The notes beneath the pieces are model-generated. The model had not been told where the DNA came from, did not search any database, and was given only the letters and a program-made list of their open reading frames with translations. From Escherichia coli (GTDB lineage: Bacteria > Pseudomonadota > Gammaproteobacteria > Enterobacterales > Enterobacteriaceae), in NCBI RefSeq assembly GCF_029227855.1, contig NZ_CP074356.1: a DNA stretch of 64,000 nucleotides. One strand, given 5' to 3'. The number at the start of each line of letters is the position of its first letter. Position 1 is the first letter of the stretch. Below are positions 1,685 to 52,315 of the stretch, piece by piece. The position numbers and the translations under genes were made by a program.

Positions 1685-2018
<334 letters not shown>

Positions 2019-8387: not shown

Positions 8388-9659
8388 TTACTCAATCAGC
8401 TTCAACAGTGGCGACAAGCATAGCAAAATGCCGTAAAGCAGAATTAGCCAGGCTTTAAATCCGCGAAGTTTTTCCAGTTGTGCGACTTTATAGATCAGGA
8501 AAAACGGAATGAGGCACGACACAATGCCATATAACGGGCTTCCCAACTGAAAGAACACCAGCACCGATACACGAAACGAAACCCAAATCGTCAATGTAAT
8601 GACGATAAAAGCGCAGATCGCCAGAGTCAGCATGCGTGAGTTAATTTTCTTGGTATCAATAATTCGGCTTAACAGATTGAGAATAATGCCTTTAATAGCC
8701 TCGTGGAAACCGAGATAAATGCCAAAGAATGCGGTCAGTACGGCAAAGATATTCAGCACCGTAGAGGTGATATGAATGATATGTCCAGGGATCACCTGCG
8801 CGGCCAGCGCCAGTGCCGAGATATTTTGTTCAAAGGCAGAAACGGCTTCTTCGTGGCTAATTGAGAAGGTAAACGAAAAGGCAAAAAACAGGATCACCGC
8901 GATGAGCGTGATATAACTAATTCGGTGGGTACGCAGCGCGAGCCGGGTTGCCAGTACTTTATCCGCTTCCCGTTTACGATAGGCAATATTCATTGGGTTA
9001 AGTACCTGAATAAATACTGCAGAAAAGAAGCAAAATGGAATGGTAAGCAAGACATCGCGGAAAAAGACGGAGGCTTGCGGGAAGGCGGTTATATTGGCGA
9101 AATTCCAGTGCGGGATCATCGCAAAACCGAACACGACAATAATCCCTACTTTGACCACCACCATTGGCCCGGAAATCTTAAACAGTAATCGTTCACCACC
9201 AGACGCAATCGCCACCAGTACGGCGAAAATAGCGACTTTATAAAGTAGAGATTGTGAAAGATCGGCATCGGTTAAACCGAAGGTTTTCAGGTACGAGGCG
9301 CTGTCGAAAACCACGGAGAGAGAGTAGATAAAAATCCCGTGGATAATCATCAAAAAGTAGATAACCCCGAGGAAAATTCCCCAGTTCTTCCCCAGGTAAT
9401 GACTGATAATATCGGTGTAGTCATTACAGGAATCGCTTTCAGAAAGGGTTTTTAAATAAATGTCCTGCACTACCCAGGTGGCAGGATAAGCAATGATCGC
9501 TGCGGTAATAAATACCCAAATTCCCTTCAAGCCAATTTGTACTGGCATCAGCACGGTTCCGGCACCAATCGCCATGCCTATGCATAATAAAACCCAGCCG
9601 AAGTCGTAGCGTGTAAACGGCAATTTCTGATTGTGTTTCGATAGTGTGTTGTGCTGCAT
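8388..9659 (-). CDS. yhjV: Putative amino acid permease (HAAAP/aromatic amino acid permease-like)
   Basis: Polytopic membrane ORF convergent with dppF. The ORF track extends to 9722; I chose the internal ATG giving 423 aa to match the recalled YhjV length, so the start is uncertain. Confidence 0.75.
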
Positions 9660-10018
9660 AAAGTCCTGTCCAGAAAGAAGTCGGCCTCGCAAAAATGAAT
9701 AAACCCAGTTTCTCTTGCGCAACAGGTGGAGAAGTCGAATACGCAGTATGTAAAAAATGAGGCAACAGATTCACTGGGGAGGTCGCGAGGAGGCGCAATT
9801 CTACAAAATTGCGCATTTCACTACCAGTCTGGAGTCAGCCCGGATATGAACTGCAACTATTGCAAATAAAGAAATTAAGCTGGAAGGCATCGCGCAATGA
9901 GGAAGATTGCCGGGTGCTGACAGTAAAAAGCAATCGTAAAATCAGCGGCAAGCCGAAAGGGTTCCGGTGAGGCGCAATGTTGCGGGGGCTTTATCCCTGG
10001 TGGCATTGGTTGCTGGAG

Positions 10019-10084
10019 AGAGAAAACCCCCGCACGTTGCAGGTATGTACCTGACAACATAACGGGGGCTAATCTTGAACCTAG
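10019..10084 (-). ncRNA. rdl: Rdl antisense RNA (antitoxin) for ldr copy 1; boundaries approximate
   Basis: The minus strand reads GTCTAGGTTCAAGATTAGCCCCCGTTATGTTGTCAGGTACATACCTGCAACGTGCGGGGGTTTTCTCTC, which matches the Rdl sRNA as recalled. It lies in the ldr leader on the opposite strand. Confidence 0.5.
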
Positions 10085-10134
10085 ACCACTCAAGAATAGC
10101 CGCGAAACGTTGTCATTACAACACAGGCGGCTAT

Positions 10135-10242
10135 ATGACGCTCGCAGAGCTGGGCATGGCCTTCTGGCATGATTTAGCGGCTCCGGTCATTGCTGGCATT
10201 CTTGCCAGTATGATCGTGAACTGGCTGAACAAGCGGAAGTAG
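10135..10242 (+). CDS. ldr: Ldr-family type I toxin peptide (35 aa), copy 1
   Basis: Encodes MTLAELGMAFWHDLAAPVIAGILASMIVNWLNKRK; matches the Ldr small hydrophobic toxin family. Confidence 0.8.
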   Translation: MTLAELGMAFWHDLAAPVIAGILASMIVNWLNKRK

Positions 10243-10501
10243 CGTGTCATGTGGGCGTCAGGCTGCCGTAATGGCAATTTGCGCCCGGACCAGGCCGCAG
10301 GAGTGAAACTCTGCGGCCTTTTTCGTAAGAAAAATGCAACGGTTGCAAGCGGATAATATTCTGCGGAATGCGCAGCACAGAGTGAAGATGAGACGGATTC
10401 CGGAACAGAAAAACAGTCGTAGAATCAGCGTCAAGCCGGAAGGATTCCGGTGAGGCGCAATGTTGCGGGGGCTTAATCCCTGGTGGCATTGGTTGCTGGA
10501 G

Positions 10502-10567
10502 AGAGAAAACCCCCGCACGTTGCAGGTATGCACCTGACAACACCACGGGGGCTATTCTTGCATCCAA
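10502..10567 (-). ncRNA. rdl: Rdl-like antisense RNA for ldr copy 2; boundaries approximate, 5-prime half diverged
   Basis: Placed by the 483-bp periodicity; the terminator-proximal half is conserved, the 5-prime half differs from copy 1. Confidence 0.4.
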
Positions 10568-10617
10568 ACAATACAAGAATAGCCGCGAAACGTTGTCATT
10601 ACAATACAGGCGGCTAT

Positions 10618-10725
10618 ATGACGCTCGCAGAACTGGGCATGGCCTTCTGGCATGATTTAGCGGCTCCGGTCATTGCTGGTATTCTTGCCAGTATGATCGT
10701 GAACTGGCTGAACAAGCGGAAGTAA
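10618..10725 (+). CDS. ldr: Ldr-family type I toxin peptide (35 aa), copy 2
   Basis: Identical peptide to copy 1; only synonymous nucleotide differences. Confidence 0.8.
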   Translation: MTLAELGMAFWHDLAAPVIAGILASMIVNWLNKRK

Positions 10726-10984
10726 CGTGCCATGCGGGCGTCAGGCTGCCGTAATGGCAATTTGCGCCCGGATCAGGCCGCAGGGGTGAAACTCTGCGGC
10801 CTTTTTCGTAAGAAAAATGCAACGGTTGCAAGCGGATAATATTCTGCGGAATGCGCAGCACAGAGTGAAGACGTGACGGATTCCGGAACAGAAAAACAGT
10901 CGTAGAATCAGCGGCAAGCCGGAAGGGTTCCGGTGAGGCGCAATGTTGCGGGGGCTTTATCCCTGGTGGCATTGGTTGCTGGAG

Positions 10985-11050
10985 AGAGAAAACCCCCGCA
11001 CGTTGCAGGTATGCACCTGACAACATCACGGGGGCCATTCTTGAACCTGA
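10985..11050 (-). ncRNA. rdl: Rdl-like antisense RNA for ldr copy 3; boundaries approximate
   Basis: Placed by the 483-bp periodicity; sequence close to copy 1. Confidence 0.45.
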
Positions 11051-11100
11051 ACAACTCAAGAATAGCCGCGAAACGTTGTCATTACAACACAGGCGGCTAT

Positions 11101-11208
11101 ATGACGCTCGCAGAACTGGGCATGGCCTTCTGGCATGATTTAGCGGCTCCGGTCATTGCTGGCATTCTTGCCAGTATGATCGTGAACTGGCTGAACAAGC
11201 GGAAGTAA
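11101..11208 (+). CDS. ldr: Ldr-family type I toxin peptide (35 aa), copy 3
   Basis: Identical peptide to copies 1 and 2. Confidence 0.8.
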   Translation: MTLAELGMAFWHDLAAPVIAGILASMIVNWLNKRK

Positions 11209-11294
11209 CGTGTCATGCGGGCGTCAGGCTGCCGTAATGGCAATTTGCGCCCGGACCAGGCCGCAGGGGTGAAACTCTGCGGCCTTTTTCGTGC

Positions 11295-46223: not shown

Positions 46224-46240
46224 AATTTTACTCAGACATA

Positions 46241-46345
46241 AAAAAAACCCGGCATAGGGGACCGGGAAGAGGATAGTCTGCCGTCTCCAGACTAATAAAC
46301 CGTTATAACACTCCCTGTTGGCACGGGAAACTTTGTGCTCTCAGT
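46241..46345 (-). ncRNA. gadY: GadY small RNA (antisense to the gadX 3-prime UTR)
   Basis: The minus strand reads ACTGAGAGCACAAAGTTTCCCGTGCCAACAGGGAGTGTTATAACGGTTTATTAGTCTGGAGACGGCAGACTATCCTCTTCCCGGTCCCCTATGCCGGGTTTTTTTT, matching GadY as recalled with a terminal hairpin and U tract. Confidence 0.8.
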
Positions 46346-46590
46346 AAGTTAAATATAACTTTTACTGGAAATAAGATCAGCCATTTTTTTATAAACATAA
46401 GCTATACGCTGTGCGAAAATATATTCGTGCTGCATTTACTTATTATCAATTAACTGTTATGCAAAACTACTTTGTGGATAAATTTTGGTCCTACCAAATC
46501 TGGCAGTTTTTTCGCTAAGAAACAGTCTGGCAACATTTCATTAGTATACTGAAATTGAAATAATCGCAGTATGAAATATAAGGGATAATC

Positions 46591-51977: not shown

Positions 51978-52315
51978 TTTAGTCCCTGAAAATTCTTGAG
52001 AAATAACGGTTCTTTAAATTGCGCGCGAGGAGAGATATGAGGGATTTACAGACCAGCGGCATAGTGGGGTTGTCAGCCAGTAAGGTGGGATACAGGTATA
52101 GTGATCGACATGGTGAGGTCAACGACAAAAAAAATGTTGCCGTTCTGCCAACAGTTCCTGCCAGCATTCGGGCAACGAAGGGTTCTACTGGTGGATACAC
52201 ATACCAGGGGAATAAAGTCGTTTTAGCCTCTCCTTTAGTAATCACCGGGGGTAATGAAATCAGCATCTGCATCCCTCGTCATGCCAGCCATCAATTTCAG
52301 TTGCTTATGTCCTGA

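Follow-up and report, generated by a model that had tools for sequence, protein, structure and literature searches.

The closest described relative of this locus is the ldrD/rdlD module of Escherichia coli K-12, in which, according to the passages of PMC4147584 that draw on Kawano et al. (2002), over-expressed Ldr is lethal and translation of ldr is repressed by Rdl. A second K-12 site, between kdsA and chaA, carries three LDR units in tandem (ldrA/B/C-rdlA/B/C). Control of ldr by Rdl is believed to resemble that in hok/sok (PMC4147584, PMC8167048); in hok/sok, known from plasmid R1 and from chromosomal homologues, an 11-nt 5' tail of the Sok RNA recognises a loop of the hok mRNA (PMC1635323). 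The ibs/sib modules likewise occur as several near-identical copies per genome, and their Sib antitoxin RNAs are set apart by short stretches of high variability, which are target-recognition domains that discriminate cognate ibs mRNAs and prevent cross-talk (PMC2943612). Among the papers searched, none tests cross-talk among Rdl RNAs.

We analysed a stretch of E. coli DNA of 64,000 nucleotides (hereafter the window), in which a 483-bp tandem repeat occupies positions 9920-11292 between yhjV and bcsG (Table 1). Tandem Repeats Finder returned one array there, with a period of 483, 2.8 copies, 95% matches and no indels. Each of the three units consists of an ldr ORF, an Rdl RNA and a terminator, so that every module is complete, and the 483-bp period and three terminator hairpins agree with the described LDR repeat unit (~450-530 bp, a ~370-nt mRNA, an intrinsic terminator). 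The region is thus three complete LDR-D-type ldr/rdl type I toxin-antitoxin modules in tandem. An earlier note on this DNA had read it in the same way and had given the ldrD locus of K-12 as single-copy; both points are borne out, the first by the repeat analysis together with three ORFs, three Rfam matches and three terminator hairpins, and the second by MG1655 and BW2952, which carry one copy each.

The locus is that of K-12 ldrD/rdlD: the array occupies the same place between yhjV and bcsG, its units are built alike, and at the nucleotide level they are 96-97% identical to the K-12 unit. LdrD itself shares 34 of 35 residues (L3 in the window, F3 in K-12). K-12 differs in having one unit instead of three, in lacking the 107-nt joining spacer at the D locus, and in its loop sequence, CTCTAGACCAC, which is not among the three patch haplotypes of the window described below. 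In the K-12 ldrA/B/C array, too, leader core and hairpin arms (TCTTGA/TCAAGA) are conserved and the variation falls in the loop, but that array has a period of 535 bp as opposed to 483, another locus, another spacer and an LdrA/B/C-type peptide; for a unit from the kdsA-chaA locus of genome E69, ~128 of 347 non-patch positions differ.

Table 1. Coordinates of the ldr/rdl array and its parts in the window
Feature	Position	Strand	Evidence or remark
yhjV, left flank	8388..9659	-	RefSeq annotation of identical record
Tandem array of three LDR-D-type units	9920..11292	.	Tandem Repeats Finder; three-unit alignment
ldr mRNA 1, predicted ends, ~376 nt	9949..10324	+	putative -10 TAAAAT at 9937-9942; terminator at 3' end
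ldr mRNA 2, predicted ends	10432..10807	+	putative -10 TAGAAT at 10420-10425; unit alignment; terminator scan
ldr mRNA 3, predicted ends	10915..11290	+	putative -10 TAGAAT at 10903-10908; unit alignment; terminator scan
Rdl antitoxin RNA 1, 66 nt	10021..10086	-	Rfam RF01813, 90.7 bits; MFE -31.7 kcal/mol, z -5.95
Rdl antitoxin RNA 2	10504..10569	-	Rfam, 84.5 bits; fold
Rdl antitoxin RNA 3	10987..11052	-	Rfam, 83.7 bits; fold
Hypervariable patch, unit 1	10059..10091	.	pi comparison
Hypervariable patch, unit 2	10542..10574	.	pi comparison; unit and haplotype comparison
Hypervariable patch, unit 3	11025..11057	.	pi comparison; unit and haplotype comparison
Predicted hairpin, ldr leader 1, UCUUGA-ACCUAGACCAC-UCAAGA	10073..10095	+	RNAalifold consensus; RNAfold of isolated segment
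Predicted hairpin, ldr leader 2, loop AUCCAAACAAU, closing pair lost	10556..10578	+	RNAalifold; RNAfold
Predicted hairpin, ldr leader 3, loop ACCUGAACAAC	11039..11061	+	RNAalifold; RNAfold
Putative rdl promoter, unit 1 (-35 TTGTAA, 17-nt spacer, -10 TATTCT)	10093..10121	-	read by eye from the sequence
ldr ORF 1, 35 aa and TAG stop	10135..10242	+	Pfam Ldr_toxin PF13940; RefSeq WP_001295224.1
ldr ORF 2, identical 35-aa peptide	10618..10725	+	translation; RefSeq annotation
ldr ORF 3, identical 35-aa peptide	11101..11208	+	translation; RefSeq annotation
ldr terminator hairpin 1	10292..10319	+	intrinsic-terminator scan
ldr terminator hairpin 2	10775..10802	+	intrinsic-terminator scan
ldr terminator hairpin 3	11258..11285	+	intrinsic-terminator scan
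Inter-unit spacer 1-2	10325..10431	.	not in single-copy genomes; includes upstream promoter region of unit 2
Inter-unit spacer 2-3	10808..10914	.	3 differences from spacer 1-2
bcsG, right flank	11295..12974	-	RefSeq annotation

The predicted 5' end of the unit 1 ldr mRNA was set 7 nt past a -10-like hexamer, and the resulting length of ~376 nt fits the K-12 ldrD mRNA, which Kawano et al. reportedly put at ~370 nt in 2002. All three ldr ORFs encode the same peptide, MTLAELGMAFWHDLAAPVIAGILASMIVNWLNKRK, which matches Pfam Ldr_toxin over positions 1-35 of 35 (E=1e-26, 93 bits). Their nucleotide differences are all silent (GAG/GAA at codon 5, GGC/GGT at codon 21 and the TAG/TAA stop), as the ORF comparison in the earlier note had it. 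Within single arrays of other genomes, however, Ldr peptides do vary (M26L, N29S, V28M, W30S, R34Q, A16V and L3F are examples).

Opposite the 5' leader of each ldr lies an Rdl RNA, antisense to positions -49 to -114 from the ATG and clear of the start codon, the position annotated for K-12 rdlD. All three matches cover positions 1-66 of 66 of the Rfam rdlD model (RF01813, gathering score 50). The upstream antisense RNA that had been proposed is therefore present in every unit, but as a transcript opposite the ldr leader and not as a separate upstream gene. In its predicted fold, Rdl RNA 1 has an unpaired 5' tail joined to a terminator hairpin that is long but imperfect; in the Rfam consensus, with which the minimum free energy folds concur, nt 1-16 are unpaired and nt 26-27 are interior-loop positions. 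Pairwise, the three Rdl copies differ at 5-7 of 28 nt in their 5' part and at 0-1 of 38 nt in their 3' part. Here too the earlier reading stands in part: the differences do fall mainly in the Rdl 5' part, but all three copies differ from one another, and not copy 2 alone. A sigma-70-like promoter scan at a threshold of 9 of 12 consensus positions found no site; the putative rdl promoter of unit 1, also present in units 2 and 3, has 8 of 12.

Comparison of units revealed that they differ mainly in a 33-nt patch, -76 to -44 from the ATG, which comprises Rdl nt 1-28 and the 5 nt upstream of rdl +1. Among 49 units from 17 genomes, mean pi was 0.163 in the patch, 0.046 at third codon positions and 0.029 in the remainder of the unit, which the patch exceeds about sixfold in diversity; sites with pi of at least 0.2 numbered 13 of 33 in the patch as compared to 16 of 342 elsewhere (Fisher p=4e-8). 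In Rdl, the patch takes in the single-stranded 5' tail and the interior loop. On the ldr mRNA, a consensus fold of eight sequences places it in the 11-nt loop and flanks of a predicted hairpin whose arms are invariant and whose loop is variable. RNAalifold found 0 compensatory pairs and, as its arms never vary, the leader hairpin is without covariation support; a mutual-information search between the patch and other variable sites returned linkage only and no convincing base-pair covariation. The putative rdl -10 box shares sequence with the 3' arm of the hairpin, and this overlap alone could explain its conservation.

The best reading of the patch, by analogy with Sok, is that it may be where tail and loop recognise each other, so that every module would have an address of its own. 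In the mechanism we propose, each unit would yield an ldr mRNA with a long structured leader and an ORF for the 35-aa membrane toxin, whose synthesis the opposite-strand Rdl, complementary to that leader, would repress. The Rdl tail would make first contact with the loop of the ldr leader hairpin, as Sok does with hok; the patch haplotype would then be the address, and each Rdl would act preferentially on its own ldr mRNA. Unit number, in turn, would change through unequal homologous recombination between the 483-bp repeats. Predicted duplex energies are consistent with such specificity: Rdl nt 1-16 pair with their own target at about -25 kcal/mol and with the other two targets at -6.6 to -17.6, favouring cognate pairs by 7-18 kcal/mol. 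Across the three units, on the other hand, Rdl nt 29-66 vary at one position at most, so that pairing between units could begin in this segment. Both the tail-to-loop contact and the preference for the cognate mRNA are model-based predictions.

Sok resembles Rdl in length (~65 nt), in its single-stranded 5' tail and in its one long hairpin, and hok mRNA is likewise long, stable and highly structured; the hok/sok toxins, however, are non-homologous to Ldr, and for ldr the tail-to-loop contact is a prediction and both the coupled leader ORF (ldrX) and 3' processing are putative. Sib RNAs span the whole ibs ORF and carry two recognition domains, whereas discrimination by Rdl is a prediction from duplex energies.

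The patch types might instead be kept because they tune expression, through the strength of the rdl promoter or start, the stability of Rdl or the translation of the ldr leader, so that the units would be expressed differently. Several features suit this explanation: the stretch from -48 to -44 falls between the putative rdl -10 box and rdl +1, immediately before the start; the site at -75/-74 determines whether ldr is preceded by an in-frame TAA, leaving unit 1 with an in-frame stop and units 2 and 3 open for 80 and 91 codons; and the sequence upstream of the ldr -10 box differs between first and internal units. Most variable sites, however, fall within Rdl nt 1-17 and not in the promoter, and we regard tuning as rather unlikely.

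Patch sequences fall into few classes, with eight discrete loop haplotypes among 54 units. The exact patch of Rdl RNA 2 occurs in only 56 of 5426 genomes and that of Rdl RNA 3 in 1452; as a point against the address reading, the unit 1 patch with its near variants occurs 1.26 times per carrier genome. The inter-unit spacer is ambiguous as a neutral benchmark, since its first ~60 nt hardly vary and its last ~40 nt vary to the same degree as the patch, and we therefore used other Escherichia genomes instead. These form a small outgroup sample, five units taken from three genomes of Escherichia other than E. coli, and gene flow among Escherichia clades is possible. Private states in them numbered 0 of 165 in the patch as compared to 32 of 1710 in the other positions. 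Of the five patches, four matched an E. coli haplotype exactly; the flanking genes of these genomes diverge by 0.11-0.32 at third codon positions. The comparison extends to close Escherichia clades, the only ones that, chance or contaminant matches apart, a scan of the genome collection with a 20-nt leader word found; the more distant E. albertii, E. fergusonii and Salmonella lie outside it.

That so few haplotypes recur unchanged in three other Escherichia species suggests that the patch is constrained and not drifting. The earlier note had supposed that the antitoxins are diversifying while the toxin is conserved; the toxins of the window are indeed identical and the differences lie mainly in the Rdl 5' part, but the patch types are old and shared across species, which is not ongoing diversification. 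The same data weigh on the idea that the patch is functionless, being the one part of the unit free of constraint, and has just drifted, with redundant modules that cross-repress freely. In its favour, the variable positions are all unpaired in Rdl, a cis-antisense pair keeps its complementarity under any mutation, and other presumably unconstrained stretches, the end of the spacer and the terminator loop, vary as well. Nor do arrays clearly avoid identical types: 2 of 53 pairs within arrays were identical as compared to 7.6% between genomes, which is not significant, and some arrays repeat a type (units 2 and 3 of L012, units 1 and 4 of L014, and L015), which also tells against the address reading. 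An unconstrained stretch would nevertheless be expected to gain ~3-10 changes per 33 nt over the divergence of these species, a figure at odds with the absence of private states and the small number of loop haplotypes, and drift appears quite improbable to us. No concerted evolution was detected, within-array and between-genome distances being 0.169 and 0.162 for the patch and 0.027 and 0.027 for the rest of the unit.

The number of units at this locus is a common E. coli polymorphism, ranging from 1 to 5. The inter-unit spacer is present in 3304 of 5426 complete E. coli genomes (6994 occurrences, median 2 per genome, maximum 4), and among 60 evenly spaced spacer-bearing genomes, a single spacer was seen in 10, two spacers in 31 and three in 19. 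From these counts, three copies are the commonest array size, at about one third of all genomes, and the single copy of K-12 is a minority state (~39% of genomes). Arrays of 2, 3, 4 and 5 units were read directly in other genomes, and two-copy arrays with the same spacer occur in two other Escherichia species-level genomes; RefSeq labels all copies in such arrays as Ldr family toxins and, in a record identical to the window, annotates three. The three-copy array is therefore an ordinary, already annotated form. The suggestion that three copies are unusual does not hold, reference genomes showing them as the norm, the very outcome that the earlier note had named as telling against it. An assembly artefact, with the repeat expanded or wrongly resolved, is hardly credible as the source of the three copies: 483-bp repeats at 94-97% identity can mis-assemble from short reads, and one study speculated as much for the ldrABC locus (PMC7232551), but the units differ at 12-22 positions across the 376-nt transcribed unit and are hence separable, the array is 100% identical over 1901 nt in the complete genome NZ_CP025916 and 99.9% identical in the independent assembly NZ_CM142788, and 2-5 units occur in the 3304 spacer-bearing complete genomes.

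Taken as a whole, the account that combines a three-module array, copy-number polymorphism, old patch haplotypes and Sok-like addresses is probably the best explanation of the locus. Its boldest part we advance tentatively, as something that could well be so but falls somewhat short of probable: that at least eight ancient address types are kept unchanged across Escherichia species even as other parts of the unit diverge and units are gained, lost and reshuffled within arrays, the modules forming orthogonal pairs and strains differing in their sets of addresses. As a finding about copy number, the array matters little, beyond indicating that K-12 is a poor reference for the ldr/rdl D locus. 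The address types are a modest new lead. If they set pairing specificity, ldr/rdl arrays would amount to a naturally occurring collection of orthogonal antisense pairs, which would help explain the persistence of type I toxin-antitoxin modules as multi-copy arrays and would provide ready-made orthogonal RNA regulators.

Several smaller features accompany the leader and the spacer. No unambiguous candidate for ldrX, the coupled leader ORF, was identified in the window sequence, and the only ORF start within the Rdl-complementary segment is an in-frame TTG at 10075 in unit 1. A candidate leader ORF of 25 aa lies at 9977-10054, its end inside the Rdl-paired region, and a candidate 20-aa ORF with a TTG start lies at 10110-10172, overlapping the ldr start; NCBIfam gave no match for either the 25-aa leader ORF or the 35-aa Ldr peptide. 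RNAalifold also predicts pairing between the leader and the 3'UTR (columns 23-32 with 327-338 and 189-198 with 304-313), in which all pairs are invariant, without compensatory change. Finally, spacer 1-2 contains an inverted repeat, TGCAACGGTTGCA, at 10335-10347.

The locus, between yhjV and bcsG, had been read in the earlier note as three tandem ldr/rdl type I toxin-antitoxin modules, and several lines of evidence support that reading: firstly, Tandem Repeats Finder reported a single array (period 483, 2.8 copies, 95% matches, no indels), and the three units are 94–97% identical over their 376-nt transcribed part; secondly, all three ldr ORFs translate to MTLAELGMAFWHDLAAPVIAGILASMIVNWLNKRK, which Pfam Ldr_toxin matches over its full length (E=1e-26); thirdly, the Rfam rdlD model (RF01813) aligns over its full length with every unit (90.7, 84.5 and 83.7 bits in units 1, 2 and 3, against a gathering score of 50), and every unit contains a GC-rich terminator hairpin with a T run behind it. 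In line with the earlier note, K-12 MG1655 and BW2952 each have a single ldrD/rdlD pair between yhjV and bcsG, whereas the window has three; the K-12 peptide differs from the window's by one residue (F3 rather than L3). The toxins are indeed identical within the window, their ORFs differing only in two synonymous codons and a TAG or TAA stop. In other E. coli, non-identical Ldr peptides occur within one array (compared genomes L007, L008, L009, L010, L011, L012, L013, L017, L018 and L019), with the variants L3F, A16V, M26L, V28M, N29S, W30S and R34Q; W30S alters the tryptophan described as a signature of the family (PMC2887945).

Features of the ldr/rdl array and other RNAs in the window
Feature	Coordinates	Strand	Remark
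Tandem array	9920-11292		
ldr ORFs	10135-10242, 10618-10725, 11101-11208		35 aa, one per unit
Rdl	10021-10086, 10504-10569, 10987-11052	opposite ldr	RF01813
Hypervariable patch	10059-10091, 10542-10574, 11025-11057		units 1, 2, 3
Predicted leader hairpin	10073-10095 (unit 1)		UCUUGA-[11-nt loop]-UCAAGA; consensus fold of eight ldr mRNAs; holds patch
25-aa ATG ORF, MLRGLYPWWHWLLERENPRTLQVCT	9977-10054, 10460-10537, 10943-11020	+	every ldr leader; ends within Rdl-paired segment
-75/-74 variable site	10061-10063, 10544-10546, 11027-11029		units 1, 2, 3
ldr mRNA used for folding	9949-10324 (unit 1)		likewise units 2, 3
Perfect inverted repeat	10335-10347, 10818-10830		TGCAAC-G-GTTGCA; in near-invariant spacer part
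Related inverted repeat	9852-9864		TGCAA-CTA-TTGCA; upstream of unit 1
AgrB antisense RNAs	63123-63206, 63354-63437	-	dinQ/agrB type I toxin-antitoxin locus
GadY	46235-46348	-	
RtT	1796-1929	+	tRNA-adjacent
ES205	52127-52198	-	
naRNA4 elements (two)			

Three copies had been thought unusual, a view that did not hold. Of 5426 complete E. coli genomes, 3304 contained an 89-nt probe across the unit-unit junction that single-copy genomes lack (6994 occurrences; median 2 and maximum 4 per genome). Among 60 evenly spaced spacer-bearing genomes, the 107-nt inter-unit spacer occurred once in 10, twice in 31 and three times in 19; proportions were similar in a 30-row sample, which also included one genome with four spacers. 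From these spacer counts and samples we estimate one unit in ~39% of genomes, two in 10–14%, three in about one third, four in 12–19% and five in a few, so that three copies belong to the norm at this locus. Direct reading of 15 other genomes showed arrays of every size from two to five units. A 1901-nt region is 100% identical to the complete genome NZ_CP025916 (strain 120899), whose RefSeq annotation has three Ldr family toxins in the matching region, and 99.9% identical to an independent assembly. Clustered ldr loci in strain-dependent number have been described previously (four in K-12, three in CFT073, three in O157:H7, four in EDL933; PMC1635323; cf. PMC2887945). The array is a real, correctly identified feature, yet it is an ordinary version of a known locus and has been annotated before.

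Scanning one genome per species revealed two-unit arrays with the same spacer and yhjV/bcsG context in two Escherichia genomes outside E. coli proper, and a one-unit locus in E. whittamii. Since yhjV and bcsG of these three genomes differ from the window's at 11–32% of third codon positions, the tandem arrangement predates E. coli itself, barring a transfer between these species. A 503-nt low-coverage contig labelled Bacillus sp. (L027, NZ_JABWSY010000055.1) is an LDR-D array fragment including the spacer, at 95–98% identity, and is almost certainly contamination; BL21(RP) (L015, NZ_CP084683.1) has a two-unit array, with the same patch type in both units, flanked by an IS1 element and RHS and tuf fragments rather than yhjV/bcsG, reflecting either rearrangement or mis-assembly. 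An IS621 element splits the array-adjacent bcsG of NZ_CP041996.1 (L016), and bcsG of L019 has an internal stop. Ldr-like units are found on plasmids too, with 29 such places across the E. coli collection; an example on plasmid NZ_CP195449.1 (H40) shares 81% identity with the units of the window.

Aligning 49 units (39 distinct) from 17 E. coli genomes revealed a hypervariable patch of 33 nt, from -76 to -44 relative to the ldr ATG, that covers Rdl nt 1–28 and 5 nt upstream of rdl +1. Mean pi was 0.163 in the patch, 0.029 outside it and 0.046 at third codon positions, and pi reached at least 0.2 at 13 of 33 patch sites as compared to 16 of 342 elsewhere (Fisher p=4e-8). Between the window's units, 5–7 of 28 Rdl patch positions differ, against 0–1 of the 38 others; the divergence that the earlier note ascribed to copy 2 does lie in the 5' part of Rdl, but all three RNAs differ mutually. 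The patches of units 1 and 3 recur exactly in 1392 and 1452 genomes, and that of unit 2 in only 56; the latter is one base from a common type, which our search missed because it required a 28-base seed word. Mapped onto the Rfam consensus structure, the sites that vary fall in the unpaired 5' tail (nt 1–16), at the start of the stem (nt 17) and in an interior loop (nt 26–27), with a less variable site in the apical loop (nt 39); minimum-energy folds of the three RNAs agree, each having a free 5' tail of at least 11 nt and one long hairpin.

On the mRNA side, the arms of the predicted leader hairpin are invariant while 7 of 11 loop positions vary, and K-12 ldrA, B and C have the same arms as the window's units but different loops. 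No compensatory changes were found in the hairpin's pairs, and its 3' arm overlaps the putative rdl -10 box. The first eight bases of the predicted loop, counted from its 5' side, are complementary to Rdl nt 1–8, the geometry described for Sok, a ~64-nt antisense RNA whose single-stranded 5' tail recognises a loop in hok mRNA (PMC1635323), although the ldr hairpin is predicted only. Predicted duplex energies between Rdl nt 1–16 and the leader were ~-25 kcal/mol for the three cognate pairs and -6.6 to -17.6 for the six non-cognate ones; between Rdl nt 1–9 and the loop they were ~-13 and -1.4 to -6.9. If pairing begins at the tail, each Rdl would favour its own ldr mRNA. Sib RNAs likewise have recognition domains in variable regions, with cognate preference shown experimentally (PMC2943612), whereas for Rdl the preference is predicted from duplex energies only. 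The reading of patch types as addresses is a modest, testable lead rather than an established result. Three observations speak against a strict address system: Rdl nt 29–66 show at most one difference between units, some arrays hold identical patch types together, and carrier genomes average 1.26 occurrences of the unit-1 patch and its near variants. Our literature search found no paper testing cross-talk among Rdl RNAs.

That the patch is merely unconstrained seemed possible at first, since the terminator loop and the final ~40 nt of the spacer vary to a similar extent and distances within arrays equal those between genomes. Against this, in five units of the three other Escherichia genomes none of 165 patch bases was unseen in E. 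coli, as compared to 32 of 1710 bases outside the patch. Four of these five units have a patch that matches an E. coli haplotype exactly, and the remaining patch is one base off, where an unconstrained 33-nt stretch at the flanking third-codon divergence (0.11–0.32) should show about 3–10 changes. Outside the patch, none of these units is closer to E. coli units of matching patch type than to those of other types. Only eight loop haplotypes occur among 54 units, the window's being ACCTAGACCAC, ATCCAAACAAT and ACCTGAACAAC and that of K-12 a fourth, CTCTAGACCAC. The patch is thus a limited repertoire of old, conserved types inside an otherwise homogenised unit, judged from a small sample of five outgroup units and with gene flow among Escherichia clades possible. 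The earlier proposal of diversifying antitoxins beside a conserved toxin was right to place variation in the antitoxin's 5' part; that variation, however, is made up of ancient conserved types rather than continuing diversification, and toxins do vary within arrays of other strains.

Other features of leader and spacer were apparent. In the inter-unit spacer, at 10325-10431 and 10808-10914, the first ~60 nt are almost invariant (pi about 0.01 among 32 spacers). Their perfect inverted repeat has a related repeat upstream of unit 1, and CAACAG/CTGTTG lies upstream of K-12 ldrA/B/C; each ldr -10 box may thus have a conserved operator or hairpin some 75–85 nt upstream. The spacer itself resembles a diverged version of the stretch upstream of unit 1. 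The 25-aa leader ORF, in leader sequence that is also conserved in K-12 ldrA-D, may be translated and may be the proposed ldrX. At the variable -75/-74 site, unit 1 alone has an in-frame TAA upstream of ldr; without this stop, the ldr frame of units 2 and 3 runs on upstream as mechanical ORFs of 80 and 91 codons, starting at GTG. In the consensus fold of the ldr mRNA, leader GGCGCAAUGU is predicted to pair long-range with 3'UTR GCAAUUUGCGCC, and the start-codon region likewise with the 3'UTR; this arrangement resembles the hok mRNA fold-back, and as all pairs are invariant it gains no covariation support. Rfam matches elsewhere in the window are listed in the table.
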